Positions 6,056 through 47,710 of a stretch of DNA of 64,000 nucleotides are shown here, piece by piece; within the stretch, counting starts at the first letter, position 1, and the number at the start of each line of letters is the position of its first letter. Under the pieces are notes generated by a model. It was not told the origin of the DNA and made no database searches. It was given only the letters and a program-made list of their open reading frames with translations. The position numbers and the translations under genes are program-made. This DNA comes from Escherichia coli (GTDB lineage Bacteria; Pseudomonadota; Gammaproteobacteria; Enterobacterales; Enterobacteriaceae), in assembly GCF_024502345.1 (NCBI RefSeq), contig NZ_JALDNN010000001.1; one strand, 5' to 3'.

Positions 6056-6083
6056 AAAACCACGTTGATATTGCTCGCACTGG

Positions 6084-6170: not shown

Positions 6171-6204
6171 AACGAGGCGATATCAAAAAAAGTAAGATGA
6201 CTGT

Positions 6205-6291
6205 GCGAAGGTGGCGGAATTGGTAGACGCGCTAGCTTCAGGTGTTAGTGTCCTTACGGACGTGGGGGTTCAAGTCCCCCCCCTCGCACCA
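6205..6291 (+). tRNA. leuV: tRNA-Leu (anticodon CAG)
   Basis: Third tandem copy, identical to copy 1. Confidence 0.9.
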
Positions 6292-18872: not shown

Positions 18873-20234
18873 GTGGAAAAAGAAAATATCACCCTCGATC
18901 CGCGTTCTTCATTTACTCCATCTTCGTCGGCAGATATTCCCGTGCCACCAGATGGATTAGTTCAACGCAGTACCCGAATTAAACGCATTCAAACCACCGC
19001 CATGTTGTTATTATTTTTTGCGGCGGTAATCAATTATCTCGACCGCAGTTCGCTGTCGGTAGCAAATTTAACGATTCGTGAAGAATTGGGATTAAGTGCC
19101 ACCGAAATCGGCGCTTTGCTCTCCGTGTTTTCACTCGCTTACGGCATTGCGCAACTTCCTTGCGGCCCACTATTGGATCGTAAAGGCCCACGCCTGATGC
19201 TGGGACTGGGGATGTTCTTCTGGTCACTGTTCCAGGCCATGTCTGGCATGGTGCACAGCTTTACGCAGTTCGTGTTGGTGCGTATCGGTATGGGGATTGG
19301 TGAAGCGCCGATGAACCCATGCGGTGTAAAAGTCATTAACGACTGGTTCAACATCAAAGAGCGCGGACGCCCGATGGGCTTCTTCAACGCAGCTTCTACC
19401 ATTGGCGTTGCCGTAAGCCCACCGATTCTGGCGGCGATGATGCTGGTGATGGGCTGGCGCGGGATGTTTATTACCATTGGTGTACTGGGGATTTTTCTCG
19501 CCATCGGCTGGTATATGCTCTATCGCAACCGCGAGCACGTAGAACTGACTGCCGTTGAACAAGCTTATCTCAATGCAGGTAGCGTCAATGCCCGCCGAGA
19601 TCCGCTCAGTTTTGCCGAATGGCGCAGCCTGTTCCGTAACCGCACAATGTGGGGAATGATGCTCGGATTCAGTGGCATCAACTACACTGCGTGGCTGTAT
19701 CTGGCCTGGCTTCCTGGTTACCTGCAAACAGCCTATAACCTGGATTTAAAAAGCACAGGGTTGATGGCGGCTATCCCTTTCCTGTTTGGGGCTGCCGGGA
19801 TGCTGGTCAACGGTTACGTTACTGACTGGCTGGTCAAAGGGGGAATGGCTCCGATTAAAAGCCGTAAGATCTGCATTATTGCCGGGATGTTCTGTTCTGC
19901 CGCCTTTACGCTGATAGTACCACAAGCGACAACATCCATGATGGCGGTTCTGCTGATTGGCATGGCACTGTTCTGTATTCACTTTGCCGGAACATCCTGC
20001 TGGGGCTTGATCCACGTCGCAGTTGCTTCTCGCATGACTGCGTCGGTGGGCAGTATCCAGAACTTTGCCAGCTTCATCTGCGCCTCTTTCGCGCCGATCA
20101 TTACTGGTTTTATTGTTGATACAACCCACTCATTCCGTCTGGCACTAATCATTTGCGGTTGCGTCACCGCAGCGGGAGCACTGGCGTACATCTTCCTGGT
20201 TCGTCAGCCGATCAACGACCCGCGTAAAGATTAA
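18873..20234 (+). CDS. lgoT: L-galactonate:H+ symporter (MFS), GTG start
   Basis: 453-aa 12-TM MFS ORF; caggag SD upstream of GTG at 18873. Confidence 0.8.
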   Translation: MEKENITLDPRSSFTPSSSADIPVPPDGLVQRSTRIKRIQTTAMLLLFFAAVINYLDRSSLSVANLTIREELGLSATEIGALLSVFSLAYGIAQLPCGPLLDRKGPRLMLGLGMFFWSLFQAMSGMVHSFTQFVLVRIGMGIGEAPMNPCGVKVINDWFNIKERGRPMGFFNAASTIGVAVSPPILAAMMLVMGWRGMFITIGVLGIFLAIGWYMLYRNREHVELTAVEQAYLNAGSVNARRDPLSFAEWRSLFRNRTMWGMMLGFSGINYTAWLYLAWLPGYLQTAYNLDLKSTGLMAAIPFLFGAAGMLVNGYVTDWLVKGGMAPIKSRKICIIAGMFCSAAFTLIVPQATTSMMAVLLIGMALFCIHFAGTSCWGLIHVAVASRMTASVGSIQNFASFICASFAPIITGFIVDTTHSFRLALIICGCVTAAGALAYIFLVRQPINDPRKD

Positions 20235-20282
20235 ACTCCCTATGCCCGATAACATTTTGCTTATCGGGCATTTTTATGGCGA

Positions 20283-21947
20283 TTAAAACGTTTCCCAGTT
20301 CTCCCCGCTATCTGCCACTGCCATTTTACGCGGCGTAGCTGGCGTCACGGTTTTTACCACAGCCGATGTTTCACGCTGCTGTTGCTGCTGTTGCTGAATC
20401 CGGAACACTGCCACAGCTTCGGTCAGGCGACTGGCCTGCTCTTCCAGCGCGGCGGCGGCAGCGGCAGACTCTTCCACCAGCGCGGCGTTCTGTTGAGTTA
20501 CCCGGTCCATCTCAGCAACCGCTAAGCCAACCTGATCGATACCACGGCTCTGCTCATCAGAAGCAGAAGCTATTTCGCCCATAATGTCCGTCACGCGGGT
20601 CACGGCGCTGACAATCTCCGCCATTGTTTCCCCGGCGCTTTCGACCAGCGTAGAGCCAACATCCACTTTCCCCACCGAGTCTTCAATCAGGCTTTTAATT
20701 TCACGAGCCGCCTGGGCGCTACGCTGGGCCAGATTACGCACTTCTCCCGCAACCACCGCAAAACCACGTCCTTGCTCACCCGCACGCGCAGCCTCAACCG
20801 CCGCGTTCAAAGCCAGAATATTGGTCTGGAAGGCAATGCCGTCAATTACGCTGATAATATCGGCGATTTTCTGCGAACTAGTGGAGATATCGCGCATAGT
20901 CTGCACCACGTTATCCACCACTTTGCCGCCGCGTTGCGCCGTTTCAGAAGCACTTAACGCCAGGTGGCTGGCCTGGCGCGCATTCTCGGCGTTCTGTTTC
21001 ACCGTTGCGGTCAGTTGCTCCATGCTGGCTGCCGTCTCTTCCAGCGAAGCGGCCTGTTGCTCGGTGCGCGAAGAGAGATCGTTATTACCGGTAGCGATTT
21101 CGCTGGCACCGCTATAGATGGCATTGGCCCCGTTGCGCACATCACCGACGGTACGCATCAGTTCTCCCTGCATATGGCGCAAACTCTCTGCCAGTTGCCC
21201 CATCTCATTAGAGCCATCCACCTCAATCGGTTTCACCAGATCGCCGCCTGCAATATGACGGATGCTGTCAATCAGGCGATTCATTGGCGCTACCAGCGAG
21301 GCTTTAATACCGAACCAGACGGCGAAGATGACCGCCAGTACGACGATCATCACGCCCACCAGAATCCACATCGCCTGGCTGTAGGAGGCATTGTTATCGC
21401 TGACGGCGATATCATAGAGCCGATCGTTTTGCTCCATGTAAGCCACATACTGCTTCTCGAAACCGTCTTGATATCCCTGGGTCGGCTGATCAAAGAACTC
21501 GTTGATTTTGCCTGCACCTAACAGTTGGATCAGCTCCGCCAGCGCATTGTGATAAATATCGTAATTACGTTTGCTCTCTGCCGCTGCGGCGGTGCTCTGA
21601 CGCGGGTCACGCGGCAACGCTTCGTAATCCACCCAGTTTTTTTCCGCCTGTTTCAACGAAATACTGGCACTCTGCATCAGCTCAGCAACGGTTGAACCGC
21701 TACCAATATTATTCTGATCCATCATGTAGCGGATACCCGCGCGGTTGAGGGTGTTACGCGTCTGCAACAACGCGACCCAGCTGCCATTCAGCGTGGATTG
21801 CTGCTGGCGAATGGTTTGTAAAACAGTGAAATTTTCTTTGTCATTCTTTAAGGCATTAAAGAACAGACCGCCTGATGTCAGTTGTAAAAGGCCAAAAACG
21901 GCCAAAACCAGCAGTAAGCTGGTCACGATCTTGATACGTTTTAACAT
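20283..21947 (-). CDS. tsr: Methyl-accepting chemotaxis protein I (serine chemoreceptor)
   Basis: 554-aa ORF with two TM segments, HAMP, methylation helices and C-terminal NWETF pentapeptide; the linker carries seven consecutive Gln codons. Confidence 0.9.
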
Positions 21948-22065
21948 GGTTTCTCTTTCCTGTGGACCGATGCAAGATTTTCGGCCTGGAAAGCAAAAAC
22001 TTTATGAAAAGGTGTAACCCGCCATCCATGGAAAAACCAGGCGCTGGTTATCAGATACTAAAAAG

Positions 22066-22512
22066 TTATTCATTATCGCCCGGGATGTCTTCTTGTCGGG
22101 AATTGCCCAGAGCAATAAATTCCTCTAACAGATGGGTTAACTGTTGCATTTTCTCGGCAGTAAACTGAGCTTCAATCTGCCGATAGGCTTCTTCAATCTG
22201 TGTCTGAGCGCGGTTATACAGCGCCTGCCCCTCTTTGGTCAGCGAGATATAGAGCTTCCGCTGATCATTGATCGGCTTTAATCGCAACACTAAACCGTCG
22301 CGTTCCATCCGCGTGAGGATCCCGGTCAGGCTTGGGCGCAAAATGCAGGCGCGATACGCCAGATCGTGAAAATCCATTGATGGGCTTTCCGCCAGAATAC
22401 GCACGATGCGCCACTGTTGCTCAGTCAAATTATGCCGTTTAACGATTGGGCGAAAATAACTCATCGCCGCTTCTCGCGCCTGGAGCAACGCAATGGTTAG
22501 TGAGTCGTGCAT
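22066..22512 (-). CDS. hpaR: MarR-family repressor of the hpa operon
   Basis: 148 aa from the internal Met (MHDSLTIALLQAREAAMSYF...), divergent from hpaG. Confidence 0.8.
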   Translation of the reverse strand: MHDSLTIALLQAREAAMSYFRPIVKRHNLTEQQWRIVRILAESPSMDFHDLAYRACILRPSLTGILTRMERDGLVLRLKPINDQRKLYISLTKEGQALYNRAQTQIEEAYRQIEAQFTAEKMQQLTHLLEEFIALGNSRQEDIPGDNE

Positions 22513-22783
22513 TATCTTTCCCCTGAAAAATTCAAAATCATTAATATAGAAACAATTAATCATCACGTTACCGGGACTGCGCTGCCCCTGCAATTCCTGA
22601 TTTTATCAAAATTGATGATATTTTATTAACTTACTGATATTTAATATTTTATTATCTTTATATGTAAATAGTTTGTTAATTAGATCACATTTATATCACT
22701 TACTTTTGCCAAACTACGCAATCGGGAATAAAAGTAATCATTAACATATTAATGATTAAGATGATCGAATCCGAGGAGTGGTA

Positions 22784-24073
22784 ATGAAAGGCACTATCTT
22801 CGCCGTAGCGTTGAACCATCGCAGCCAACTTGATGCCTGGCAGGAAGCGTTCCAGCAATCTCCCTACAAAGCCCCGCCTAAAACTGCGGTCTGGTTTATT
22901 AAACCGCGCAATACGGTGATTGGTTGCGGTGAACCGATTCCCTTTCCACAGGGTGAAAAGGTACTGAGCGGTGCGACAGTTGCGCTGATTGTGGGAAAAA
23001 CGGCGACGAAAGTACGTGAAGAAGATGCGGCAGAGTACATCGCCGGATATGCGCTGGCTAACGACGTCAGCCTGCCGGAAGAGAGCTTTTACCGCCCGGC
23101 AATCAAAGCAAAATGTCGTGATGGATTCTGCCCCATTGGCGAAACCGTGGCTCTCAGCAATGTCGATAATCTGACTATCTATACCGAGATCAACGGGCGT
23201 CCTGCCGATCACTGGAATACCGCCGATTTACAACGTAACGCCGCACAGCTGCTGAGCGCCCTGAGCGAATTCGCCACGCTGAACCCAGGCGACGCCATTT
23301 TGCTTGGCACACCACAAACCCGCGTGGACATTCAACCCGGCGATCGCGTTCGTGTTCTCGCAGAAGGTTTCCCGCCGCTGGAAAATCCGGTAGTGGACGA
23401 ACGTGAAGTGACCACGCGTAAAACCTTCCCAACGCAGCCACACCCGCACGGCACGCTGTTTGCCCTCGGCCTGAACTACGCCGACCACGCCAGTGAACTG
23501 GAATTTAAGCCACCGGAAGAGCCGTTGGTGTTTCTGAAAGCGCCGAATACCCTCACGGGCGATAACCAGACCTCCGTGCGCCCGAACAACATCGAGTACA
23601 TGCACTACGAAGCGGAGCTGGTGGTAGTTATTGGCAAGCAGGCTCGTAACGTCAGCGAAGCCGATGCCATGGATTATGTCGCGGGCTACACCGTGTGTAA
23701 CGACTACGCCATTCGCGACTATCTGGAAAACTACTACCGCCCTAACCTGCGGGTCAAAAGCCGCGACGGACTGACGCCGATGCTTTCAACCATCGTGCCG
23801 AAAGAGGCGATCCCGGACCCGCATAATCTGACCCTTCGCACCTTCGTCAACGGCGAGTTACGCCAGCAAGGCACCACCGCCGATCTGATCTTCAGCGTGC
23901 CCTTCCTGATCGCCTACTTAAGCGAATTTATGACCCTGAATCCGGGCGACATGATCGCCACCGGCACACCAAAAGGCTTATCTGACGTGGTGCCTGGCGA
24001 TGAAGTAGTGGTGGAAGTAGAAGGCGTGGGCCGCCTGGTGAACCGAATTGTGAGTGAGGAAACAGCGAAATGA
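22784..24073 (+). CDS. hpaG: Bifunctional isomerase/decarboxylase of the homoprotocatechuate pathway (FAH family, duplicated domain)
   Basis: 429 aa from ATG at 22784 (GGAG 5 nt upstream); two FAH-like halves. Confidence 0.85.
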   Translation: MKGTIFAVALNHRSQLDAWQEAFQQSPYKAPPKTAVWFIKPRNTVIGCGEPIPFPQGEKVLSGATVALIVGKTATKVREEDAAEYIAGYALANDVSLPEESFYRPAIKAKCRDGFCPIGETVALSNVDNLTIYTEINGRPADHWNTADLQRNAAQLLSALSEFATLNPGDAILLGTPQTRVDIQPGDRVRVLAEGFPPLENPVVDEREVTTRKTFPTQPHPHGTLFALGLNYADHASELEFKPPEEPLVFLKAPNTLTGDNQTSVRPNNIEYMHYEAELVVVIGKQARNVSEADAMDYVAGYTVCNDYAIRDYLENYYRPNLRVKSRDGLTPMLSTIVPKEAIPDPHNLTLRTFVNGELRQQGTTADLIFSVPFLIAYLSEFMTLNPGDMIATGTPKGLSDVVPGDEVVVEVEGVGRLVNRIVSEETAK

Positions 24074-25536
24074 AAAAAGTAAATCATTGGATCAACGGCA
24101 AAAATGTTGCAGGTAACGACTACTTCCAGACCACCAATCCGGCAACCGGTGAAGTGCTGGCGGATGTGGCCTCTGGCGGTGAAGCGGAGATCAATCAGGC
24201 GGTAGCGGCAGCGAAAGAGGCGTTCCCGAAATGGGCCAATCTGCCGATGAAAGAGCGTGCGCGCCTGATGCGCCGTCTGGGCGATCTGATCGACCAGAAC
24301 GTGCCTGAGATCGCCGCGATGGAAACCGCGGACACGGGCCTGCCGATCCATCAGACCAAAAACATGTTGATCCCACGCGCTTCTCACAACTTTGAATTTT
24401 TCGCGGAAGTCTGCCAGCAGATGAACGGCAAGACCTATCCGGTTGACGACAAGATGCTCAACTACACGCTGGTGCAGCCGGTAGGCGTTTGTGCACTGGT
24501 GTCGCCGTGGAACGTGCCGTTTATGACCGCCACATGGAAGGTCGCGCCGTGTCTTGCGCTGGGCAATACCGCGGTGCTGAAGATGTCGGAACTCTCCCCG
24601 CTGACCGCTGACCGCCTGGGTGAGCTGGCGCTGGAAGCCGGTATTCCGGCGGGCGTGCTGAACGTGGTACAGGGCTACGGCGCAACCGCAGGGGATGCGC
24701 TGGTTCGTCATCATGACGTACGTGCCGTGTCGTTCACCGGCGGTACGGCCACCGGGCGCAACATCATGAAAAACGCCGGGCTGAAAAAATACTCCATGGA
24801 ACTGGGCGGTAAATCGCCGGTGCTGATTTTTGAAGATGCCGATATTGAACGCGCGCTGGACGCTGCCCTGTTCACCATCTTCTCAATCAACGGCGAACGC
24901 TGCACCGCCGGTTCGCGCATTTTTATTCAACAGAGCATCTATCCAGAATTCGTTAAACGCTTTGCCGAACGCGCCAACCGTCTGCGCGTGGGCGATCCGA
25001 CCGATCCGAATACCCAGGTTGGGGCGCTTATCAGCCAGCAGCACTGGGAAAAAGTCTCCGGCTATATCCGTCTCGGCATTGAAGAAGGCGCCACCCTGCT
25101 GGCGGGCGGCCCGGATAAACCGTCTGACCTGCCTGCACACCTGAAAGGCGGCAACTTCCTGCGCCCAACGGTGCTGGCGGACGTAGATAACCGTATGCGC
25201 GTTGCCCAGGAAGAGATTTTCGGGCCGGTCGCCTGCCTGCTGCCGTTTAAAGATGAAGCCGAAGGCTTACGCCTGGCAAACGACGTGGAGTACGGCCTCG
25301 CGTCGTACATCTGGACGCAGGATGTCAGCAAAGTGTTACGCCTGGCGCGTGGCATTGAAGCAGGCATGGTGTTCGTCAACACCCAGAACGTGCGTGACCT
25401 GCGCCAGCCATTTGGCGGCGTAAAAGCCTCCGGCACCGGGCGTGAAGGCGGTGAGTACAGCTTCGAAGTGTTCGCGGAAATGAAGAACGTCTGCATTTCC
25501 ATGGGCGACCATCCAATTCCGAAATGGGGAGTCTGA
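24070..25536 (+). CDS. hpaE: 5-carboxymethyl-2-hydroxymuconate semialdehyde dehydrogenase
   Basis: 488-aa aldehyde dehydrogenase ORF (catalytic Cys in FSINGERCTAGSR, ELGGKSP motif); ATGA overlap with hpaG. Confidence 0.85.
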   Translation: MKKVNHWINGKNVAGNDYFQTTNPATGEVLADVASGGEAEINQAVAAAKEAFPKWANLPMKERARLMRRLGDLIDQNVPEIAAMETADTGLPIHQTKNMLIPRASHNFEFFAEVCQQMNGKTYPVDDKMLNYTLVQPVGVCALVSPWNVPFMTATWKVAPCLALGNTAVLKMSELSPLTADRLGELALEAGIPAGVLNVVQGYGATAGDALVRHHDVRAVSFTGGTATGRNIMKNAGLKKYSMELGGKSPVLIFEDADIERALDAALFTIFSINGERCTAGSRIFIQQSIYPEFVKRFAERANRLRVGDPTDPNTQVGALISQQHWEKVSGYIRLGIEEGATLLAGGPDKPSDLPAHLKGGNFLRPTVLADVDNRMRVAQEEIFGPVACLLPFKDEAEGLRLANDVEYGLASYIWTQDVSKVLRLARGIEAGMVFVNTQNVRDLRQPFGGVKASGTGREGGEYSFEVFAEMKNVCISMGDHPIPKWGV

Positions 25537-25537
25537 T

Positions 25538-26389
25538 ATGGGTAAGTTAGCGTTAGCCGCCAAGATCACGCACGTACCGTCGATGTATCTCTCTGAACTG
25601 CCAGGGAAAAACCACGGTTGCCGCCAGGGCGCGATCGACGGGCATAAAGAGATCAGCAAGCGTTGCCGGGAAATGGGCGTCGATACCATTATCGTTTTCG
25701 ACACCCACTGGCTGGTCAACAGTGCTTATCACATCAACTGTGCAGACCATTTTGAAGGCGTCTACACCAGTAACGAACTGCCGCATTTTATTCGTGACAT
25801 GACCTACAACTACGAGGGCAACCCGGAGTTGGGGCAGCTTATTGCCGATGAAGCCTTAAAGCTCGGCGTGCGGGCGAAAGCGCACAACATTCCCAGCCTC
25901 AAACTGGAGTACGGCACGCTGGTACCGATGCGCTACATGAATGAAGACAAGCGCTTCAAAGTGGTCTCCATTTCGGCTTTCTGCACGGTTCACGATTTTG
26001 CCGACAGCCGCAAGCTGGGCGAAGCGATTCTGAAAGCGATCGAACAGTACGACGGCACCGTGGCGGTCCTTGCCAGCGGTTCGTTATCGCACCGCTTTAT
26101 TGACGATCAGCGTGCAGAAGAAGGGATGAACAGCTACACCCGCGAGTTCGACCGTCAGATGGACGAGCGCGTGGTGAAGTTGTGGCGCGAAGGCCAGTTC
26201 AAAGAGTTCTGCAATATGCTGCCGGAGTACGCCGACTACTGCTACGGCGAAGGCAATATGCACGACACGGTGATGCTGCTGGGGATGCTCGGCTGGGATA
26301 AATACGACGGCAAGGTGGAGTTTATCACCGAGCTATTCCCAAGCTCTGGCACCGGTCAGGTTAACGCTGTTTTCCCGCTTCCCGCGTAA
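25538..26389 (+). CDS. hpaD: 3,4-dihydroxyphenylacetate 2,3-dioxygenase
   Basis: 283-aa extradiol-dioxygenase-like ORF in the conserved hpa position. Confidence 0.85.
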   Translation: MGKLALAAKITHVPSMYLSELPGKNHGCRQGAIDGHKEISKRCREMGVDTIIVFDTHWLVNSAYHINCADHFEGVYTSNELPHFIRDMTYNYEGNPELGQLIADEALKLGVRAKAHNIPSLKLEYGTLVPMRYMNEDKRFKVVSISAFCTVHDFADSRKLGEAILKAIEQYDGTVAVLASGSLSHRFIDDQRAEEGMNSYTREFDRQMDERVVKLWREGQFKEFCNMLPEYADYCYGEGNMHDTVMLLGMLGWDKYDGKVEFITELFPSSGTGQVNAVFPLPA

Positions 26390-26398
26390 GGACGTTTT

Positions 26399-26779
26399 AT
26401 GCCGCACTTTATCGTTGAATGCAGTGACAACATCCGCGAAGAAGCCGACCTGCCGGGGTTGTTCGCCAAAGTGAATCCGACGCTGGCAGCCACGGGTATT
26501 TTTCCGCTGGCGGGTATTCGCAGCCGCGTGCATTGGGTCGATACCTGGCAGATGGCCGACGGGCAGCGTGATTATGCCTTCGTGCATATGACGTTGAAAA
26601 TCGGCGCAGGTCGCAGCCTGGAAAGCCGTCAGCAGGCGGGTGAAATGCTGTTTGAACTGATTAAAACGCACTTCGCCGCCCTGATGGAGAGCCGCCTGCT
26701 GGCGTTGTCGTTTGAGATTGAAGAGCTGCATCCGACGCTGAATTTTAAACAAAACAACGTGCACGCATTGTTTAAGTAG
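26399..26779 (+). CDS. hpaF: 5-carboxymethyl-2-hydroxymuconate isomerase
   Basis: 126-aa ORF starting [12 protein letters not shown]. Confidence 0.85.
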
Positions 26780-26790
26780 CGCGCAGATTG

Positions 26791-26880
26791 CCCGGTGGCG
26801 CTGCGCTTACCGGGCCTACAAAACCCCAAACCGTACACCGTAGGCCGGATAAGGCGCAGCCGCATCCGGCAATGCCACAG
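26791..26880. repeat. REP element(s) between hpaF and hpaH
   Basis: gcctacaaaa...gtaggccggataaggcg...gcatccggca REP consensus-like palindromes. Confidence 0.6.
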
Positions 26881-26889
26881 GATATCGCT

Positions 26890-27693
26890 ATGTTCGATAA
26901 ACATACCCACACCCTGATCGCCCAGCGTCTGGATCAGGCAGAAAAACAGCGCGAACAGATCCGCGCGATCTCACTGGATTACCCGGAGATCACCATCGAA
27001 GACGCTTACGCGGTGCAGCGCGAATGGGTTCGCCTGAAAATCGCCGAAGGTCGCACGCTGAAAGGCCACAAAATCGGCCTGACCTCGAAAGCGATGCAGG
27101 CAAGCTCGCAGATCAGCGAACCGGATTACGGCGCGCTGCTGGATGACATGTTCTTCCACGATGGCAGCGATATCCCGACCGATCGCTTTATCGTGCCGCG
27201 CATTGAAGTGGAGCTGGCTTTCGTGCTGGCAAAACCGCTGCGTGGGCCAAACTGCACGCTGTTCGACGTCTACAACGCCACGGACTACGTGATCCCGGCG
27301 CTGGAGCTGATCGACGCTCGCTGCCACAACATCGATCCGGAAACCCAGCGCCCGCGCAAAGTGTTCGACACCATTTCTGATAACGCCGCCAACGCCGGGG
27401 TGATCCTCGGTGGTCGTCAGATCAAACCAGACGAACTGGATCTGCGTTGGATCTCCGCCCTGATGTATCGCAATGGCGTGATTGAAGAAACCGGCGTCGC
27501 CGCTGGCGTGCTGAATCATCCGGCAAACGGCGTGGCCTGGCTGGCGAACAAACTCGCACCGTATGACGTACAACTGGAAGCCGGGCAAATCATTCTCGGT
27601 GGTTCGTTCACCCGCCCGGTTCCGGCGCGTAAGGGCGACACCTTCCACGTCGATTACGGCAACATGGGTTCCATTAGCTGCCGCTTTGTTTAA
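26890..27693 (+). CDS. hpaH: 2-oxo-hept-4-ene-1,7-dioate hydratase
   Basis: 267 aa from the internal Met [12 protein letters not shown]...; the upstream part of the track ORF runs through the REP. Confidence 0.8.
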
Positions 27694-27703
27694 GGAGAGA
27701 ACG

Positions 27704-28492
27704 ATGGAAAACAGCTTTAAAGCGGCGCTGAAAGCAGGCCGTCCGCAGATCGGATTATGGCTGGGGCTGAGTAGCAGCTACAGCGCAGAGTTACTGGCCG
27801 GAGCAGGATTCGACTGGTTGTTGATCGACGGTGAGCACGCGCCGAATAACGTGCAAACCGTGCTCACCCAGCTACAGGCGATTGCGCCCTACCCCAGCCA
27901 GCCGGTAGTACGTCCGTCGTGGAACGATCCGGTGCAAATCAAACAACTGCTGGACGTCGGCACACAAACCTTGCTGGTGCCGATGGTACAAAACGCTGAC
28001 GAAGCCCGTGAAGCGGTACGCGCCACCCGTTATCCCCCCGCCGGTATTCGCGGTGTGGGCAGTGCGCTGGCCCGCGCCTCGCGCTGGAATCGTATTCCTG
28101 ATTACCTGCAAAAAGCCAACGATCAAATGTGCGTGCTGGTGCAGATCGAAACGCGTGAGGCAATGAAGAACTTACCGCAGATTCTGGACGTGGAAGGAGT
28201 CGACGGCGTGTTTATCGGCCCGGCGGATCTGAGCGCCGATATGGGTTATGCCGGTAATCCGCAGCACCCGGAAGTACAGGCCGCCATTGAGCAGGCGATC
28301 GTGCAGATCCGCGAAGCGGGCAAAGCGCCGGGGATCCTGATCGCCAATGAGCAACTGGCAAAACGCTATCTGGAACTGGGCGCGCTGTTTGTCGCCGTCG
28401 GCGTTGACACCACCCTGCTCGCCCGCGCCGCCGAAGCGCTGGCAGCACGGTTTGGCGCGCAGGCTACAGCGATTAAGCCCGGCGTGTATTAA
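27704..28492 (+). CDS. hpaI: 2,4-dihydroxyhept-2-ene-1,7-dioate aldolase
   Basis: 262 aa from [19 protein letters not shown]... (HpcH/HpaI aldolase family). Confidence 0.85.
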
Positions 28493-28499
28493 TGTCGAA

Positions 28500-28625
28500 T
28501 GCGTTGCGCTTATCCGGCCTACACGCGCACCAAATCGTAGGCCTGATAAGGCGTTACGCCGCATCCGGCAAAAAGCCGTACCAAATCGCGGACCGGATAA
28601 GGCGTTTACGCCGCATCCGCCATAA
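28500..28625. repeat. Tandem REP elements between hpaI and hpaX
   Basis: Repeated cttatccggcctac / ggataaggcgtt(t)acgccgcatccg units. Confidence 0.6.
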
Positions 28626-28666
28626 ACCTTGTCGTACCCTACAAAAATCCCATTAGAGGAAGAAAA

Positions 28667-30043
28667 ATGAGCGACACCTCACCTGCCATACCGGAGAGTA
28701 TCGATCCGGCGAATCAGCATAAAGCGCTGACTGCCGGACAACAGGCGGTTATTAAGAAGCTATTTCGCCGCCTGATCGTCTTTCTGTTCGTGCTGTTTAT
28801 CTTCTCGTTCCTTGATCGCATCAACATTGGTTTTGCCGGACTAACTATGGGACGCGACCTCGGTCTGAGCGCCACCATGTTTGGCCTCGCTACCACCCTG
28901 TTCTACGCCGCTTATGTCATCTTCGGCATTCCCAGCAACATTATGCTGAGTATTGTCGGTGCGCGGCGCTGGATCGCCACCATCATGGTGCTTTGGGGCA
29001 TCGCCTCTACTGCCACCATGTTTGCCACTGGCCCCACCAGCTTATACATACTGCGTATACTGGTTGGCATTACCGAAGCCGGCTTTCTGCCTGGCATTCT
29101 GCTCTATTTAACCTTCTGGTTTCCGGCCTATTTCCGCGCCCGTGCCAACGCCTTGTTTATGGTGGCAATGCCGGTAACGACAGCGTTGGGATCGATCGTT
29201 TCCGGCTACATTTTGTCGCTGGATGGCGTAATGGCATTAAAAGGCTGGCAGTGGCTGTTTTTGCTGGAAGGCTTCCCGTCGGTATTACTCGGCGTCATGG
29301 TATGGTTCTGGCTTGATGACTCACCGGACAAAGCTAACTGGCTGACGAAAGAAGACAAAAAATGCCTGCAAGAGATGATGGATAATGATCGTCTGACGCT
29401 GGTTCAGCCAGAGGGAGCCATCAGCCACCACGCTATGCAACAACGCAGCATGTGGCGGGAGATCTTCACTCCGGTGGTGATGATGTATACCCTGGCGTAT
29501 TTCTGCCTGACCAACACACTTAGTGCGATCAGCATCTGGACACCGCAGATCCTGCAAAGCTTCAATCAGGGCAGCAGTAATATCACCATCGGTCTGCTGG
29601 CCGCCGTACCGCAGATTTGTACCATTCTCGGGATGGTCTACTGGAGCCGTCACTCAGATCGCTGCCAGGAACGAAGGCATCACACCGCCCTTCCTTATTT
29701 GTTCGCTGCCGCTGGTTGGTTACTGGCTTCGGCAACTGATCACAACATGATCCAGATGCTGGGGATCATTATGGCTTCGACCGGATCATTCAGCGCAATG
29801 GCGATTTTCTGGACAACACCGGATCAGTCCATCAGCCTGCGGGCACGAGCGATCGGTATTGCGGTGATCAACGCCACTGGCAACATTGGTTCAGCATTAA
29901 GTCCGTTTATGATCGGCTGGTTGAAAGATCTGACCGGCAGCTTTAACAGTGGATTGTGGTTTGTTGCCGCGCTGCTGGTGATTGGTGCAGGGATTATCTG
30001 GGCAATTCCAATGCAGTCCTCCCGTCCGCGAGCGACCCCGTAA
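28667..30043 (+). CDS. hpaX: 4-hydroxyphenylacetate permease (MFS)
   Basis: 458-aa 12-TM ORF in the hpa cluster. Confidence 0.8.
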   Translation: MSDTSPAIPESIDPANQHKALTAGQQAVIKKLFRRLIVFLFVLFIFSFLDRINIGFAGLTMGRDLGLSATMFGLATTLFYAAYVIFGIPSNIMLSIVGARRWIATIMVLWGIASTATMFATGPTSLYILRILVGITEAGFLPGILLYLTFWFPAYFRARANALFMVAMPVTTALGSIVSGYILSLDGVMALKGWQWLFLLEGFPSVLLGVMVWFWLDDSPDKANWLTKEDKKCLQEMMDNDRLTLVQPEGAISHHAMQQRSMWREIFTPVVMMYTLAYFCLTNTLSAISIWTPQILQSFNQGSSNITIGLLAAVPQICTILGMVYWSRHSDRCQERRHHTALPYLFAAAGWLLASATDHNMIQMLGIIMASTGSFSAMAIFWTTPDQSISLRARAIGIAVINATGNIGSALSPFMIGWLKDLTGSFNSGLWFVAALLVIGAGIIWAIPMQSSRPRATP

Positions 30044-30052
30044 GGAACGACG

Positions 30053-30943
30053 ATGTGTGACCGTCAGATTGCCAATATTGATATCAGCAAAGAGTACGAT
30101 GAAAGCCTGGGCACGGACGATGTGCATTATCAGTCGTTCGCCCGCATGGCGGCATTTTTTGGCCGCCATATGCTGCCACATCGCCACGAACAGTACTTTC
30201 AGATGCATTTCCTCAATAGCGGACAGATTGAGCTACAGCTTGACGATCATCGCTACTCGGTGGAAGCGCCCCTGTTTGTCCTGACGCCGCCGTCAGTACC
30301 TCATGCGTTTATTACGGAGTCTGACGCCGACGGTCATGTGTTGACGGTACGGGAAGATCTGATCTGGCCCCTGCTGGAAGTTCTTTATCCAGGCACTCGG
30401 GAAACCTTCGGCCTGCCGGGGATTTGCCTGTCACTGGCAGATAAACCCGACGAACTGGCGGCGCTGGAACACTATTGGCAACTGATAGAGCGGGAATCGG
30501 TGGAACAACTGCCTGGACGGGAACACACCCTGACGTTACTGGCACAGGCAGTGTTCACCCTACTGCTGCGTAACGCAAAACTCGACGATCATGCCACCAG
30601 CGGAATGCGCGGAGAATTAAAACTGTTCCAGCGTTTTAATATGCTGATTGAAAGCCATTTTCATCAGCACTGGACAGTACCGGATTACGCTAACGAACTG
30701 CATATCACCGAATCACGCCTCACGGACATCTGCCGCCGCTTTGCCAACCGTCCGCCAAAACGGTTGATTTTCGACAGGCAGCTGCGAGAAGCCAAACGGC
30801 TGCTGCTGTTTTCTGATAACGCCGTGAACAATATTGCCTGGCAACTCGGTTTTAAGGATCCGGCTTATTTTGCGCGCTTTTTTAATCGCTTAGTCGGTTG
30901 CTCGCCCAGTGCTTATCGTGCCAAAAAAGTACCTGTGACGTGA
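30053..30943 (+). CDS. hpaA: AraC/XylS-family activator of hpaBC
   Basis: 296-aa ORF with C-terminal AraC-type HTH (IAWQLGFKDPAYFARFF). Confidence 0.8.
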   Translation: MCDRQIANIDISKEYDESLGTDDVHYQSFARMAAFFGRHMLPHRHEQYFQMHFLNSGQIELQLDDHRYSVEAPLFVLTPPSVPHAFITESDADGHVLTVREDLIWPLLEVLYPGTRETFGLPGICLSLADKPDELAALEHYWQLIERESVEQLPGREHTLTLLAQAVFTLLLRNAKLDDHATSGMRGELKLFQRFNMLIESHFHQHWTVPDYANELHITESRLTDICRRFANRPPKRLIFDRQLREAKRLLLFSDNAVNNIAWQLGFKDPAYFARFFNRLVGCSPSAYRAKKVPVT

Positions 30944-31193
30944 AAATCCCTTAGCCTTAACGGGAAACCAGGCACCACCTGCTATTCCCCTTTCTCCGCC
31001 TGGAGCAAGGGGATTTAGTAACGTTAAAAATAGCTAAAAGCGACCTCGATCACAAAACCGTACCCGACCTGAAAAGTACCAGCCATTGTCCCAAAAGTCT
31101 CTTCCCGTAATCGCCCCTGCAAGCTTCAATTGAATAACAAAAACAACACACAAAATTAACAATCGTATTCCGATTAATACTGTAGAGGTCGAC

Positions 31194-32756
31194 ATGAAAC
31201 CAGAAGATTTCCGCGCCAGTACCCAACGTCCGTTCACCGGGGAAGAGTATCTGAAAAGCCTGCAGGATGGTCGCGAGATCTATATCTATGGCGAGCGAGT
31301 GAAAGACGTCACCACTCATCCGGCATTTCGTAATGCGGCAGCGTCTGTTGCCCAACTGTACGACGCGCTACACAAACCGGAGATGCAGGACTCTCTGTGC
31401 TGGAACACCGACACCGGTAGCGGCGGCTATACCCATAAATTCTTCCGCGTGGCGAAAAGTGCCGACGACCTGCGCCAGCAACGCGACGCCATCGCTGAGT
31501 GGTCACGCCTGAGCTATGGCTGGATGGGCCGCACCCCAGACTACAAAGCCGCTTTCGGTTGCGCACTGGGCGCGAATCCGGGCTTTTACGGTCAGTTCGA
31601 GCAGAACGCCCGTAACTGGTATACCCGTATTCAGGAAACTGGCCTCTACTTTAACCACGCGATTGTTAACCCACCGATCGATCGTCATTTGCCGACCGAT
31701 AAAGTAAAAGACGTTTACATCAAGCTGGAAAAAGAGACTGACGCCGGGATTATCGTCAGCGGTGCGAAAGTGGTTGCCACCAACTCGGCGCTGACTCACT
31801 ACAACATGATTGGCTTCGGCTCGGCACAAGTAATGGGCGAAAACCCGGACTTCGCACTGATGTTCGTTGCGCCAATGGATGCCGATGGCGTGAAATTAAT
31901 CTCCCGCGCCTCTTATGAGATGGTCGCGGGTGCTACCGGCTCGCCGTACGACTACCCGCTCTCCAGCCGCTTCGATGAGAACGATGCAATCCTGGTGATG
32001 GATAACGTACTGATCCCGTGGGAAAACGTGCTGATCTACCGCGATTTTGATCGCTGCCGTCGCTGGACAATGGAAGGCGGTTTTGCCCGTATGTATCCGC
32101 TGCAAGCCTGTGTGCGCCTGGCAGTGAAACTCGACTTCATTACGGCACTGCTGAAAAAATCACTCGAATGTACCGGCACCCTGGAGTTCCGTGGTGTGCA
32201 GGCCGATCTCGGTGAAGTGGTGGCGTGGCGCAACACCTTCTGGGCATTGAGTGACTCGATGTGTTCAGAAGCAACGCCGTGGGTCAACGGGGCTTATTTA
32301 CCGGATCATGCCGCACTGCAAACCTATCGCGTACTGGCACCAATGGCCTACGCGAAGATCAAAAACATTATCGAACGCAACGTTACCAGTGGCCTGATCT
32401 ATCTCCCTTCCAGTGCCCGTGACCTGAACAATCCGCAGATCGACCAGTATCTGGCGAAGTATGTGCGCGGTTCGAACGGTATGGATCACGTCCAGCGCAT
32501 CAAGATCCTCAAACTGATGTGGGATGCCATTGGCAGCGAATTTGGTGGTCGTCACGAACTGTATGAAATCAACTACTCCGGTAGCCAGGATGAGATTCGC
32601 CTGCAATGTCTGCGCCAGGCACAAAGCTCCGGCAATATGGACAAGATGATGGCGATGGTTGATCGCTGCCTGTCGGAATACGACCAGAACGGCTGGACTG
32701 TGCCGCACCTGCACAACAACGACGATATCAACATGCTGGATAAGCTGCTGAAATAA
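31194..32756 (+). CDS. hpaB: 4-hydroxyphenylacetate 3-monooxygenase, oxygenase component
   Basis: 520-aa ORF in the conserved hpaBC position. Confidence 0.85.
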   Translation: MKPEDFRASTQRPFTGEEYLKSLQDGREIYIYGERVKDVTTHPAFRNAAASVAQLYDALHKPEMQDSLCWNTDTGSGGYTHKFFRVAKSADDLRQQRDAIAEWSRLSYGWMGRTPDYKAAFGCALGANPGFYGQFEQNARNWYTRIQETGLYFNHAIVNPPIDRHLPTDKVKDVYIKLEKETDAGIIVSGAKVVATNSALTHYNMIGFGSAQVMGENPDFALMFVAPMDADGVKLISRASYEMVAGATGSPYDYPLSSRFDENDAILVMDNVLIPWENVLIYRDFDRCRRWTMEGGFARMYPLQACVRLAVKLDFITALLKKSLECTGTLEFRGVQADLGEVVAWRNTFWALSDSMCSEATPWVNGAYLPDHAALQTYRVLAPMAYAKIKNIIERNVTSGLIYLPSSARDLNNPQIDQYLAKYVRGSNGMDHVQRIKILKLMWDAIGSEFGGRHELYEINYSGSQDEIRLQCLRQAQSSGNMDKMMAMVDRCLSEYDQNGWTVPHLHNNDDINMLDKLLK

Positions 32757-32773
32757 CGCAGCAGGAGGTTAAG

Positions 32774-33286
32774 ATGCAATTAGATGAACAACGCCTGCGC
32801 TTTCGTGACGCGATGGCCAGCCTGTCGGCAGCGGTAAATATTATCACCACCGAGGGCGACGCCGGACAATGCGGGATTACGGCAACGGCCGTCTGCTCGG
32901 TCACGGATACACCACCGTCGCTGATGGTGTGCATTAACGCCAACAGTGCGATGAACCCGGTTTTTCAGGGCAACGGCAAGTTGTGCGTCAACGTCCTCAA
33001 CCATGAGCAGGAGCTGATGGCACGCCACTTCGCGGGCATGACAGGCATGGCGATGGAAGAGCGTTTTAGCCTCTCATGCTGGCAAAAAGGTCCGCTGGCG
33101 CAGCCGGCGCTGAAAGGTTCGCTTGCCAGTCTTGAAGGTGAGATCCGCGATGTGCAGGCAATTGGCACACATCTGGTGTATCTGGTGGAGATTAAAAACA
33201 TCATCCTCAGTGCAGAAGGTCACGGACTTATTTACTTTAAACGCCGTTTCCATCCGGTGATGCTGGAAATGGAAGCTGCGATTTAA
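32774..33286 (+). CDS. hpaC: 4-hydroxyphenylacetate 3-monooxygenase, flavin reductase component
   Basis: 170-aa flavin-reductase-like ORF immediately after hpaB. Confidence 0.85.
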   Translation: MQLDEQRLRFRDAMASLSAAVNIITTEGDAGQCGITATAVCSVTDTPPSLMVCINANSAMNPVFQGNGKLCVNVLNHEQELMARHFAGMTGMAMEERFSLSCWQKGPLAQPALKGSLASLEGEIRDVQAIGTHLVYLVEIKNIILSAEGHGLIYFKRRFHPVMLEMEAAI

Positions 33287-33292
33287 GCTCCA

Positions 33293-33328
33293 GCCCCTTC
33301 ACGTATTCGTCGAAGGGGCATTTTTATT
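33293..33328 (+). terminator. Putative rho-independent terminator of hpaBC
   Basis: gccccttc / gaaggggc stem followed by atttttatt. Confidence 0.55.
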
Positions 33329-43111: not shown

Positions 43112-44385
43112 TGGCAGGGTTAAATAAATATCAGGCGTATCCGGAGTATAGGGATTCTGGGGTGGAGTGGTTGGGGGAGATTCCTGCTCATTGGGAAACG
43201 TTACAGCATAAATACGTCGCATATTATACTAAGGGCAAAAATCCTTCTTTTTTGCTCGATACCCCAACAAAGAACACCCTACCTTATCTTTCTATGGATT
43301 GTTTAAGAAATAACTCCATAGATAAATATGCTATAGTATCTAATGATATTCGTATTGCATTAGAGGGACAACCACTTATTATTTGGGATGGTTCTAATGC
43401 TGGGGAATTTGTCAAAGGCCGAAAAGGTATTTTATCCTCAACGATGGCCTCTGCAACGCTTAATTATCCTTTGCACATGCAATATTACTGGTATTTATGC
43501 ACTGCAATTGAATCTGAAATGCGTAAACATGCAAATGGTATGGGTATCCCTCATGTAAATGGAGAAGAATTAAAGAACATTCATCTAAGTATCCCTTCAA
43601 TAACCGAACAAAAAAGCATCGCTGGTTTTCTTGAATTTGAAACAACGAAAATTTCGAACCTTATAGAAAAACAACAACAACTAATTGAATTACTAAAAGA
43701 AAAACGTCAGGTCGTGATTAGCCATGCGGTCACAAAAGGGCTAAATCCTGACGTGCCGATGAAAGATTCTGGGGTTAAGTGGTTGGGGGAAGTTCCAAAA
43801 CACTGGCACATATGCAAGTTAAAATGGTTTGCTAATTTGAAAAGTGGTGATTTTATAACCAGCAATTCAATAGAACCAGAAGGAAACTATCCTGTATATG
43901 GTGGAAATGGATTAAGAGGATATTATTCTTATTTTACACACAATGGTGAATATGTTCTTATTGGTAGACAAGGTGCTCTTTGCGGAAATATAAATTACGC
44001 AATTGGAAAGTTTTGGGCTTCAGAACATGCTGTTGTTGTCACCCCAAACGAAAGAGCTGTTACAATATGGTTAGGAGAATTATTAAGAATAATGAACTTA
44101 AACCAATATTCAGTTTCTGCTGCACAACCGGGGCTTGCGGTTGAAAGAATTACTGATTTATATATTCCAATCCCACCATATCAAGAGCAAATAAATATCG
44201 GAACTTATATATCTAAATATATTTCTCTAGATAAAAAATTGATTGAGCATAGTACAGATAATATTGAACTCCTCAAAGAACGCCGCACCGCCCTTATCTC
44301 CGCCGCCGTCACCGGCAAAATTGATCTACGCAACTGGACCGCGCCCATCCCCGAAGCGGAAACACCCACGGAGGCCAGCGCATGA
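43111..44385 (+). CDS. hsdS: Type I restriction-modification specificity subunit
   Basis: 424-aa ORF with internal duplication (RDSGVEWLGEIPAHWE / KDSGVKWLGEVPKHWH; LIELLKEKRQVVIS / NIELLKERRTALIS) and two AT-rich target-recognition domains; start overlaps the hsdM stop. Confidence 0.85.
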   Translation: MAGLNKYQAYPEYRDSGVEWLGEIPAHWETLQHKYVAYYTKGKNPSFLLDTPTKNTLPYLSMDCLRNNSIDKYAIVSNDIRIALEGQPLIIWDGSNAGEFVKGRKGILSSTMASATLNYPLHMQYYWYLCTAIESEMRKHANGMGIPHVNGEELKNIHLSIPSITEQKSIAGFLEFETTKISNLIEKQQQLIELLKEKRQVVISHAVTKGLNPDVPMKDSGVKWLGEVPKHWHICKLKWFANLKSGDFITSNSIEPEGNYPVYGGNGLRGYYSYFTHNGEYVLIGRQGALCGNINYAIGKFWASEHAVVVTPNERAVTIWLGELLRIMNLNQYSVSAAQPGLAVERITDLYIPIPPYQEQINIGTYISKYISLDKKLIEHSTDNIELLKERRTALISAAVTGKIDLRNWTAPIPEAETPTEASA

Positions 44386-47300
44386 GCCACGACATTACAA
44401 AAGAGGTTAACCTGCAAAACGACATCATCGCGCAGATGGTGGAAAAAGGCTGGATTGTCGGCAAAGGTGACGGCTACGACCGGGAACGTGCGCTATACGC
44501 ACAGGATACCTTAAACTTCGTGCAGACCACTCAAACGCAGGAGTGGGAGAAATTCGCCCGCGTTTACCCTAACGACCCAGAGCGCCATTTCCTCGACGCG
44601 CTGGTCGCGCAGCTTAAAAAAGCCGACAGCAACGCCACCGATATCCAGTCGCGCACCTGGGGTACGCTCGGCGTACTTCGCCACGGTCTGAAAATCCGCA
44701 ATGCCCGTTTTTCGCTGTGCCAGTTTAAACCGGAACACAACCTCAACCCGGAAACGCTGGCGCGCTATCAGCAAAATATCTGCCGTATCGTGCCGGAACT
44801 GGTCTACAGCCCTTATGCCTCAAATAGCGTCTTTGCAGAAACGGGCGTGAAAGCCAAAAAATGGCGCATCGACCTTGTGCTGTTTATCAACGGCCTGCCA
44901 ATTGCCACGCTGGAGCTGAAATCCGAATTTAAACAGGCGGTGCAGAACGCCATTGCGCAGTACAAAAAGACCCGCCTGCCGAAAGATCCCGCTACCAATA
45001 AACCTGAACCGCTGCTGGCCTTTAAGCGCGGGGCGCTGGTGCATTTTGCCGTCAGCCAGTATGACGTCTTTATGACCACCAAACTCGCAGGTGACAGCAC
45101 CTTCTTCCTGCCGTTTAACAAAGGCACCAAAGAAGGCGGTGCAGGCAATGAGATCCCCGAAGATACTCGCCGCTACGCCACCGATTATCTGTGGAATGAA
45201 GTGCTGCTGCCGGACAACTTATTAAAAATCCTCGCCAGTTTTGTCCATTTGCAGATTGAAGAAAAAGAGGAGTGGAACGGGCTGAAAGCGAAGAAAGAGA
45301 GCCTGATTTTCCCGCGCTATCACCAGTGGGATGTGGTCAACAAACTGCTGGAGGCTGCGACGGTCGAAGACACCGGCCATAAATACCTGATTCAGCACAG
45401 CGCAGGTTCCGGAAAGTCGAACTCCATTGCCTGGACCGCCCACCAGCTCTCTCGTCTGTACGACGCAAACGGGGAAAAACAGTTCCACTCCGTTATCGTG
45501 GTGACAGACCGCACGGTGCTGGACGACCAGCTTCAGGACACCATCTGGCAGTTCGAACATGCCGACGGCGTGGTCGGGCGCATCAATAACAGAGAGGGCG
45601 ACGGCTCTAAATCGGAAAAGCTCGCCAACGCGCTGGAAAACTCGCAACCGATTATTATTGTCACCATCCAGACGTTCCCGTTCGTATTGAAAGCTATCGA
45701 AAACAGTGTCAGCCTGAAGCAGCGTAAATACGCGGTAATCGCCGATGAAGCGCACTCCTCGCAGAGCGGTTCTACCGCCCGTCAGCTCAAAGAAGTGCTG
45801 ATGAGCGAAGAGATGGATGATGACGTGGTACTGTCGTCAGAAGATATTCTGGATGCGACCATCGCCGCACGGAAAGGTAGCAGTAACCTGAACTACTATG
45901 CCTTTACCGCCACGCCCAAATCCAAAACCCTGGAACTTTTTGGTCGCCGTCCACGTCCCGATGAACCGGCGTCAAAAACCAATAAACCTGAGGCCTTCCA
46001 CGTCTACTCCATGCGCCAGGCAATCGAAGAAGGCTTTATCCTCGACGTGCTGAAAAACTACACCAACTACAAAGTGGCGTATCAGTTGCTGCAAAAGCTG
46101 GAAGATGAAGACCGCGAAGTCGATAGCAAACGGGCGAAGGTAAAACTCAATCAGTGGGTGACACTGCACGACCACAATATCTCGCAGAAGGTGAAGGTGA
46201 TTGTGGAGCACTTCCGCAAACATGTGATGCATCTGCTTGGCGGCCAGGCTAAAGCGATGGTGGTCACCAGTTCACGCAAAGCCGCCGTGCGCTATAAGCT
46301 GGCATTTGATAAATACATTAGCGAGAACAATTACCAGAAAATCAGCGCGATGGTGGCGTTTTCCGGGGAAGTTGAATTCCGGGAAGGCGACCCTAACAGC
46401 CTGGCATTGTTAAACCAGAAATTTACTGAAATAAACATGAACCCCGGCCTGAAAGGACGGGATATGCGCAAAGCCTTCGACAGCGACGATTACCAAGTCA
46501 TGCTGGTCGCCAATAAATTCCAGACCGGTTTTGACCAGCCGAAGCTGTGCGCGATGTACGTGGATAAAGCCCTCGGCGGCGTCGAGTGTGTGCAGACGCT
46601 CTCCCGCCTGAACCGCACCTATCCGGGCAAAGCGGAATCTGGCACTTTTGTCCTCGATTTTTATAATGATCCGGACGAGATCCTCGGCGCATTCCAGCCC
46701 TATTTCCAGACGGCGGAACTGACCGATGTCAGCGATCCGCAGCAGGTATTCGATCTGTTTGAAAAACTGCGCGCCACGCAGATTTTTCAGTGGCATGAAG
46801 TCGAGCAGTTCTGCGAGGCATACTTCATCAAAAATAAATCGAATGCGGCGATCAGTAATATTTGCAAACCGGCGGTCGAACGCTGGAAAAAGCGTTATCT
46901 GATGGCGATAGACGCCTATTTGACCGCCAAAGAGATGTTCGAGCGCACCAAAAAAACGGGCGATACAGTATTAATCACCAATGCGGAAAACAGTTTTAAA
47001 GCCTGTAAGCAGGAGAAAGATCGTCTGGAAATATTCAAAAAAGATCTCGGCAGCTTTGTTCGTTTTTATGAATTTATGTCGCAGATCGTTGAATACGATG
47101 ACAAGGATCTGGAAAAGCTAAGCCTGTTTGCTCGTCATCTGCGTCCGCTGCTGCATGAGCAACGTCTGGAAGATGATGAAATTGATCTCAGTAATGTGGA
47201 GATGAGTCACTATCGTTTATCGAAAATCCATGAGCAAGATTTACGCTTACAGGAAGAAACGCCTGACTATACGCTGGATGCAAGTAATAATATTGGTACG

Positions 47301-47645: not shown

Positions 47646-47658
47646 AAATACGTTAATA

Positions 47659-47684
47659 GCCGGGGTCGCACTTTCTACCCCGGC
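47659..47684 (+). terminator. Hairpin (gccggggt / accccggc) just after hsdR
   Basis: 8-bp GC-rich stem 14 nt after the hsdR stop; weak T run. Confidence 0.3.
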
Positions 47685-47710
47685 CATATTATTTACAATA
47701 AGGAATAGCT

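Follow-up and report, generated by a model that had tools for sequence, protein, structure and literature searches.

An intact hpa cluster between tsr and btsT in an Escherichia coli genome, probably at its ancestral enterobacterial position

Between tsr and btsT, two genes that are adjacent in Escherichia coli K-12, other E. coli strains carry about 11.3 kb of genes for hydroxyphenylacetate catabolism, and the question is whether this hpa cluster was inserted there or whether K-12 is the strain that has changed. We addressed it in a stretch of 64,000 nucleotides of E. coli DNA (assembly GCF_024502345.1, contig NZ_JALDNN010000001.1), referred to here as the window, for which an earlier note made from the sequence alone had described a complete set of hpa genes stitched with repetitive extragenic palindromic (REP) elements and had read the junction as an insertion hotspot. 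The identity of the cluster, the non-K-12 status of the window and the positions of the REPs were borne out by our analysis, and the reading of an insertion hotspot stitched with REPs was not. With a probability that we put at about 85%, positions 22066-33286 hold the chromosomal hpa (homoprotocatechuate) regulon in the form canonical for E. coli, which is intact here and probably functional, the position between tsr and btsT is ancestral, and the K-12 junction is an allele of loss or replacement.

Identity and integrity of the hpa cluster

The map of open reading frames (ORFs) from 19 to 37 kb contains one minus-strand ORF and ten plus-strand ORFs, enclosed by a 554-amino-acid ORF on the minus strand and a 716-amino-acid ORF on the plus strand. 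All 11 are full length, free of internal stops and of canonical size once their start codons are corrected, and in a profile search of the window ORFs each of the 11 Hpa proteins exceeded the curated cut-off of its own NCBIfam equivalog with end-to-end coverage. The gene order and orientation are those of the hpa cluster, hpaR on the minus strand being followed on the plus strand by hpaGEDFHI, hpaX, hpaA and hpaBC, so that the set named in the earlier note is indeed complete, and the whole is colinear with the hpa clusters annotated by the Prokaryotic Genome Annotation Pipeline (PGAP) in E. coli MSI001 and AS19.

The single minus-strand gene, hpaR (22066-22512), encodes the MarR-family repressor of the meta-cleavage operon (TIGR02337, 200.3 bits against a cut-off of 121.2) and carries the same name in the aligned PGAP records. 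The meta-cleavage operon itself runs on the plus strand from hpaG (22784-24073), encoding the bifunctional isomerase/decarboxylase (NF011750, 977 bits, cut-off 811), through hpaE (24070-25536), the 5-carboxymethyl-2-hydroxymuconate semialdehyde dehydrogenase gene (TIGR02299, 740 bits, cut-off 638), hpaD (25538-26389), the 3,4-dihydroxyphenylacetate 2,3-dioxygenase gene (TIGR02298, 547 bits, cut-off 316), and hpaF (26399-26779), the 5-carboxymethyl-2-hydroxymuconate isomerase gene (NF011605, 259 bits, cut-off 215), present here as what we call the window-type haplotype. It continues with hpaH (26890-27693) for 2-oxo-hept-4-ene-1,7-dioate hydratase (TIGR02312, 464 bits, cut-off 351.5) and hpaI (27704-28492) for 4-hydroxy-2-oxoheptanedioate aldolase (TIGR02311, 433 bits, cut-off 368.8). 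The remaining plus-strand genes are hpaX (28667-30043), encoding the 4-hydroxyphenylacetate permease of the major facilitator superfamily (TIGR02332, 890 bits, cut-off 615), hpaA (30053-30943), encoding the AraC/XylS-family activator of hpaBC (TIGR02297, 392 bits, cut-off 275), and the two genes of 4-hydroxyphenylacetate (4-HPA) 3-monooxygenase, hpaB (31194-32756) for the oxygenase component (TIGR02310, 1109.6 bits, cut-off 885) and hpaC (32774-33286) for the flavin reductase component (NF012030, 383 bits, cut-off 315).

In this pathway, HpaX imports 3- or 4-hydroxyphenylacetate, HpaBC converts it to 3,4-dihydroxyphenylacetate, and HpaD, HpaE, HpaF, HpaG, HpaH and HpaI take this product through meta-cleavage to pyruvate and succinate semialdehyde, while HpaA activates hpaBC and HpaR represses hpaGEDFHI; these functions are assigned here by family membership and gene order. 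Residue 379 of HpaB, read from the translation, is Arg. This is the form that accepts 3-HPA as well as 4-HPA, and the window has it in common with BL21(DE3) (PMC7201708). Judging from the intact ORFs and this residue, the source strain is probably able to grow on 3- and 4-hydroxyphenylacetate, two aromatic acids of the gut, as E. coli B, C and W do and K-12 does not (PMC7201708). The biology of the E. coli hpa cluster is already established, as the earlier note had said of the B, C and W lineages, and the strain of the window can be placed among the hpa-positive, non-K-12 E. coli.

A cluster that is present and yet decayed in the source strain could be suspected, given that the hpa DNA of the window has no match of at least 99% in any complete E. 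coli genome and that substitutions specific to its lineage are clustered in hpaG (23250-23650). We consider this very improbable: the 11 ORFs are full length and stop-free with end-to-end equivalog matches above cut-off, HpaB keeps Arg379, and the palindromes of the promoter region and the terminator described below are intact.

The hpa clusters of E. coli W, C and B were reportedly described by Prieto, Diaz and Garcia in 1996 and by Diaz and coworkers in 2001. The cluster in the window agrees with theirs in its 11 genes, in how these are ordered and oriented, and in its location at the tsr-btsT site, a comparison that for W and C draws on PMC7201708 and in which the B strains are REL606 and BL21(DE3). 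In the E. coli B derivative AS19, we found the same 11 genes at 97.4% DNA identity. The window differs from E. coli B in three respects: (i) there is one extra REP in each of two intergenic REP clusters, (ii) hpaF belongs to the other of two haplotypes, at 80% DNA identity, and (iii) hpaG carries the lineage-specific substitution patch.

The tsr-btsT junction in E. coli and other Enterobacteriaceae

We searched 5,426 complete E. coli genomes with a query of 14 kb that comprised the cluster and both flanks. In 2,063 of them it matched over at least 80% of its length in a single colinear place, with hpaR to hpaC annotated between tsr and btsT. The interior of the cluster alone found a match in 2,076 genomes, all at 95 to 99% DNA identity, and all but 13 of these carriers (2,063/2,076) are contiguous with both tsr and btsT. 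The window is colinear with the annotated hpa clusters at 97 to 98.4% DNA identity; the best match reaches 98.4%, and none of the 5,426 genomes reaches 99%, so the source strain is not among them. On either side the window has closer relatives, the left 20 kb being nearest to O157:H7-like strains (99.2%) and the right 25 kb to strain Z142-6 (99.2%).

In K-12 MG1655, only an intergenic region of 377 bp separates tsr from btsT. K-12 is homologous to the window up to 22008 and then again, weakly from 33329 and clearly from 33373, so the limits of 22066 and 33328 previously given for the cluster are accurate; aligned to this junction, the segment at 22009-33327 (about 11.3 kb) is replaced in K-12 by an unrelated spacer of 133 bp, which confirms that the window is not of K-12 type. 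These limits come from blastn searches and alignments against K-12, O157:H7 and an allele with a D-amino-acid island.

The direction of change was judged from a scan for HpaH in one genome per species of the GTDB, with all proteins of the window mapped onto the 80 loci returned (loci used for comparison are numbered here with the prefix L). The complete order tsr-hpaR...hpaC-btsT-yjiX-yjiA also occurs in Enterobacter (L032, L035, L043, L046), Lelliottia (L039), a Citrobacter sp. (L049) and Pseudocitrobacter (L005, L007), the last with 3.4 kb of additional DNA after tsr, and the right-hand part, hpaC-btsT-yjiX-yjiA, is found in the Klebsiella oxytoca group, Raoultella and Citrobacter (L010, L012, L019-L021, L026, L033, L036, L038). 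DNA identity of hpa falls with taxonomic distance, from 97 to 98% within E. coli through 93 to 96% in a cryptic Escherichia lineage (L006) to 76 to 88% in other genera. Within Escherichia, hpa has diverged to an extent within the range seen in the flanking genes; in the cryptic lineage, the flanks comparable to the window are tsr and lgoT only, and their identity is lower than the 93 to 96% of hpa. The G+C content of the cluster is 54.6%, against 54.2% in the flanking genes. Because the order is kept across genera, identity falls with taxonomic distance and G+C is normal, the position of hpa between tsr and btsT looks ancestral for Enterobacteriaceae, and K-12 most likely lost the cluster. A loss in K-12 has been suggested before, citing Diaz 2001 (PMC7201708); our literature search found no paper that mentions hpa, tsr and yjiY together. 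In Salmonella enterica subsp. arizonae (L014), the hpa genes are rearranged, with hpaBC inverted upstream of hpaR and neither tsr nor btsT in the flanks.

Within E. coli, four alleles of the junction cover 5,391 of the 5,426 genomes. The K-12-type spacer is found in 2,757 genomes and the hpa cluster in 2,076. An O157:H7-type allele in 363 genomes consists of a 0.8-kb AT-rich segment (L004, 2507-3282) with an ORF for a hypothetical protein of 180 amino acids that gave no Pfam match, and a further 195 genomes carry a 5.8-kb D-amino-acid island (L003, 2509-8342, E. coli RMDEC465) encoding a MurR/RpiR regulator, a sodium:solute symporter, RidA, an N-acyl-D-amino-acid deacylase and an amino-acid deaminase. 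In RMDEC465, the 5' end of tsr is unusually divergent, with 95.5% identity and, near the border, about 80%. The 133-bp K-12 spacer showed no similarity to hpa, to the O157 segment or to the D-amino-acid island (word size 7, E <= 1e-3).

Several observations weigh against an ancestral cluster lost in K-12: (i) among the representatives of other Escherichia species in the GTDB, a close HpaH was found in just one (L006), and because the presence of hpa in the genus is patchy, the lineage of E. coli may conceivably have regained it through homologous replacement; (ii) the stretch from hpaG to hpaI is unusually similar to Pseudocitrobacter, at 91 to 99% against about 80% in the flanks, and because of this difference at least part of the cluster would have moved between genera; (iii) the K-12-type spacer is old, since it has diversified down to 90 to 95% identity; and (iv) a clean deletion scar, as which the K-12 spacer was considered, is ruled out, since the spacer has no similarity to any hpa sequence. 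Taken at face value, such points lead to the converse account, in which a K-12-like junction is ancestral, hpa was gained horizontally in the lineages of B, C, W and this strain, and the junction, as a hotspot, takes up foreign DNA again and again. Three different inserts (hpa, the D-amino-acid island and the O157-type segment) do lie at the same site, the part resembling Pseudocitrobacter shows that exchange between genera happens here, and the K-12-type spacer, besides its age, is the commonest allele, with most representatives of other Escherichia species lacking hpa. We nevertheless regard a horizontal gain as unlikely, since the gene order with both flanks recurs in at least four other genera, hpa and its flanks have diverged to a roughly similar degree, both within E. 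coli and in relation to the cryptic lineage, the G+C of hpa equals that of the flanks, only four alleles exist among 5,426 genomes, mobility genes and border repeats are absent, and the literature favors a loss in K-12 (PMC7201708).

As four alleles account for 5,391 of the 5,426 genomes, the tsr-btsT junction is a stable four-allele polymorphism and not an open insertion hotspot. Homologous recombination in the conserved genes on either side would most likely have carried the alleles from strain to strain. A similar situation exists a few kilobases to the right in the window, at the hsd/mcr "immigration control region", where unrelated alternatives likewise have two common breakpoints in conserved flanks and lack mobility genes; at loci of this type, too, the exchange is presumably by homologous recombination in the flanks. 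The tsr-btsT site differs from them in having only four alleles and in that its hpa allele is the ancestral enterobacterial order and not an import. What our results usefully correct is therefore the direction: the order with hpa, found in several genera and with divergence and G+C like its flanks, is not an insertion of foreign DNA in a hotspot, as the earlier note had it, but an ancestral order that some E. coli, including K-12, have lost or had replaced, and annotators should not label the hpa locus a genomic island.

Mosaicism and repeats within the cluster

In a sliding-window comparison with Pseudocitrobacter vendiensis, positions 23200-28300, from the 3' part of hpaG to hpaI, have 91 to 99% DNA identity, against about 75 to 87% in the remainder of the locus and in the flanks. 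Moreover, P. vendiensis has 96% identity with E. coli in hpaE and hpaD and 91 to 93% with P. faecalis, which indicates homologous exchange between the genera Escherichia and Pseudocitrobacter (L005, L007, L008). A second, smaller patch coincides with hpaF (26350-26790), for which E. coli has two gene-sized haplotypes with 80% DNA and 85% protein identity: the window type occurs in 986 genomes and the E. coli B type in 1,085, and none falls at 90 to 95% identity. The window type groups with Pseudocitrobacter (93%) and the B type with the cryptic Escherichia lineage L006 (97%); the right breakpoint of the patch lies at the hpaF stop codon, at the REP cluster between hpaF and hpaH. From these data we tentatively draw the picture of a mosaic cluster shaped by homologous exchange across genus boundaries, a view we hold with rather less than even confidence. 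If the hpaF dimorphism were kept by selection, or if REPs acted as recombination joints, this would add a small new point on REPs and mosaicism inside operons.

Two further irregularities were noted. In hpaG, positions 23250-23650 hold dense substitutions (10 within 50 bp at 23300-23350) relative to each of E. coli B, MSI001, L006 and Pseudocitrobacter; this patch would be a lineage-specific import or a variant tract, and may partly explain the absence of a genome match of at least 99%. Across genera, HpaX falls into two classes, with about 87 to 91% or about 68 to 72% protein identity to E. coli, and its neighboring genes are uniform (L015, L019, L020, L023, L032 and others), which suggests that the permease gene hpaX may have been replaced in Raoultella, Enterobacter and Lelliottia.

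With up to two mismatches allowed, the window contains 12 copies of the REP core CTTATCMGGCCTAC where 0.42 would be expected, a 28-fold over-representation. We used this 14-nt core, as the 36-nt full consensus with up to three mismatches was too strict, finding a single copy in the window, which lies outside the cluster. Two of the groups are bacterial interspersed mosaic elements (BIMEs) at the places where the earlier note had seen REP clusters: two convergent REPs between hpaF and hpaH (26790-26872, core pair 26806-26853, hairpin of -45.4 kcal/mol), and three REPs between hpaI and hpaX (28493-28623), where a convergent pair (28493-28571, core 28509-28550) is accompanied by a degenerate copy (28585-28623). 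The plus/minus pairs at 26806/26840 and 28509/28537 have the alternating arrangement of BIMEs, and the hairpins of the two clusters fold at about -45 and -53 kcal/mol. A further REP pair follows btsT (35835-35912). Copy number varies among strains: between hpaF and hpaH there are two REPs in the window, MSI001 and L006 and one in E. coli B, and between hpaI and hpaX three in the window and MSI001 and two in E. coli B, the latter difference being a 52-bp indel. In all of this, nothing sets the REPs of the window apart from the known REP/BIME elements of E. coli, which are likewise imperfect palindromes of 35 to 40 nt with a GCCGGATG...CTTATCCGGCCTAC core that lie outside genes, form convergent pairs within operons and differ in number from strain to strain. 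They are thus best seen as ordinary intra-operonic repeats, probably acting as stabilizers or attenuators of mRNA.

The REPs also bear on the idea that hpa is a mobile genomic island, moved by site-specific transposition or by transposition of the type associated with REP-associated tyrosine transposases (RAYTs), with REPs as its ends or joints. REPs are indeed present, and the hpaF patch ends on the right (about 26790) at one of their clusters; yet they lie between genes inside the operons, not at the ends of the cluster, and none is found at the tsr or the btsT border. The segment 22009-33327 contains no integrase, transposase or RAYT ORF, all ORFs on the hpa strand being hpa genes; no direct or inverted repeats pairing the two borders were found; there is no tRNA within 15 kb of the cluster, the nearest lying at 5969-6291; and its G+C does not deviate from that of the neighboring core genes. 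Together with the 2,063 of 2,076 E. coli carriers in which the cluster is contiguous with both flanks, nearly always at one site, this effectively refutes a mobile island. The phrase "stitched with REP elements" in the earlier note therefore fails at the borders, which have no REP, direct repeat, tRNA or integrase, and REPs are not the route by which hpa entered the site.

Borders, control regions and the remainder of the window

The left flanking core gene is tsr, encoding the serine chemoreceptor (20283-21947, minus strand; NF011615, 1220 bits against a cut-off of 947; 97.7% identity to K-12 tsr), and the right one is btsT, or yjiY, encoding the pyruvate/H+ symporter (33679-35829, plus strand; 98.3% to K-12 btsT), followed by yjiX and yjiA. 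The sole NCBIfam match of the BtsT protein is to the model of its paralogue CstA, below cut-off, and the name is taken from PGAP, which assigns btsT in the aligned records.

At the left border, five aligned alleles are identical through AAAACTTTAT (to 22006), can be aligned to 22006-22008 and then diverge. This motif is the -35 element of a putative sigma-28 (FliA) type promoter of tsr on the minus strand (21978-22004), which reads TAAAGTTT, 11 nt, GCCGAAAA, the sigma-28 consensus being TAAAGTTT-N11-GCCGATAA; the left breakpoint thus lies just upstream of the -35 element. Inside the cluster, the divergent control region of hpaR and hpaG (22513-22783) is AT-rich, with G+C dipping to 39%, and contains an inverted repeat; two related palindromic boxes (22536-22558 and 22735-22757), AATCATTAA...TTAATGATT, are what we take, from published work on HpaR, to be candidate HpaR operators. 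An intrinsic terminator follows hpaC on the plus strand (33293-33327), with a stem GCCCCTTC...GAAGGGGC and a T-run (-19.1 kcal/mol, z = -4.0), and in the alignment the same stem and T-run also end the D-amino-acid allele. Consensus scans for promoters and terminators gave matches at or below shuffle expectation; the terminator scan overlooked the hpaC terminator, whose loop exceeds 8 nt and which was folded directly. An Rfam scan of 20000-37500 returned no match.

To the right of the terminator begins the control region of btsT on the plus strand (33328-33399), which the alignment shows to be kept in all alleles. It comprises a CRP-type site, TGTGATCTCAATCACA (33328-33343), and a direct repeat, ACCGCTCA-N12-ACCGCTTA (33372-33399), both upstream of btsT and common to all alleles. 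The repeat presumably represents a BtsR/YehT-type motif, of the kind reportedly described by Kraxenberger in 2012. CRP control of yjiY/btsT has been reported (PMC5431176). The variable segment thus appears to be the stretch between two promoter regions, that of tsr with its sigma-28 elements on the left and that of btsT with CRP and BtsR sites on the right.

The leader of btsT contains an enterobacterial repetitive intergenic consensus element, also called an intergenic repeat unit (ERIC/IRU), of 130 nt (33534-33663, plus strand), ending 15 nt before the btsT start codon. Such elements are imperfect palindromes of about 127 bp with a conserved core, and this one folds into a hairpin of -60.6 kcal/mol (z = -8.95). 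The 22-nt sequence of the ERIC2 primer matches at 33600-33621 with three mismatches, where no chance matches are expected; a 44-nt composite ERIC core had no match within three mismatches. K-12 and O157:H7 lack the element, whereas the hpa-bearing and D-amino-acid alleles that we examined contain it, and approximately 2,062 E. coli genomes have an ERIC at this site. Since btsT is under translational control by CsrA (PMC5431176), the ERIC in its leader could change btsT expression.

Elsewhere in the window, three tandem tRNA-Leu(CAG) genes lie at 5969-6291. Part of the left 20 kb is repeated, with a median of 13 places per E. coli genome and 1,658 places on plasmids, which suggests an insertion sequence or another multicopy element. 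The O157:H7-like genomes nearest to these 20 kb cover 93% of the query and have about 5 kb of extra DNA, in which a dsr1 defense gene and an integrase are annotated. To the right of yjiA, at approximately 37000-48000, lies the variable immigration control region with type I restriction-modification and GmrSD/DUF262-DUF1524 genes, and the closest genome has a BrnA antitoxin in this region; positions 37000-61999 of the window are covered to at least 80% in only 114 of the 5,426 genomes.

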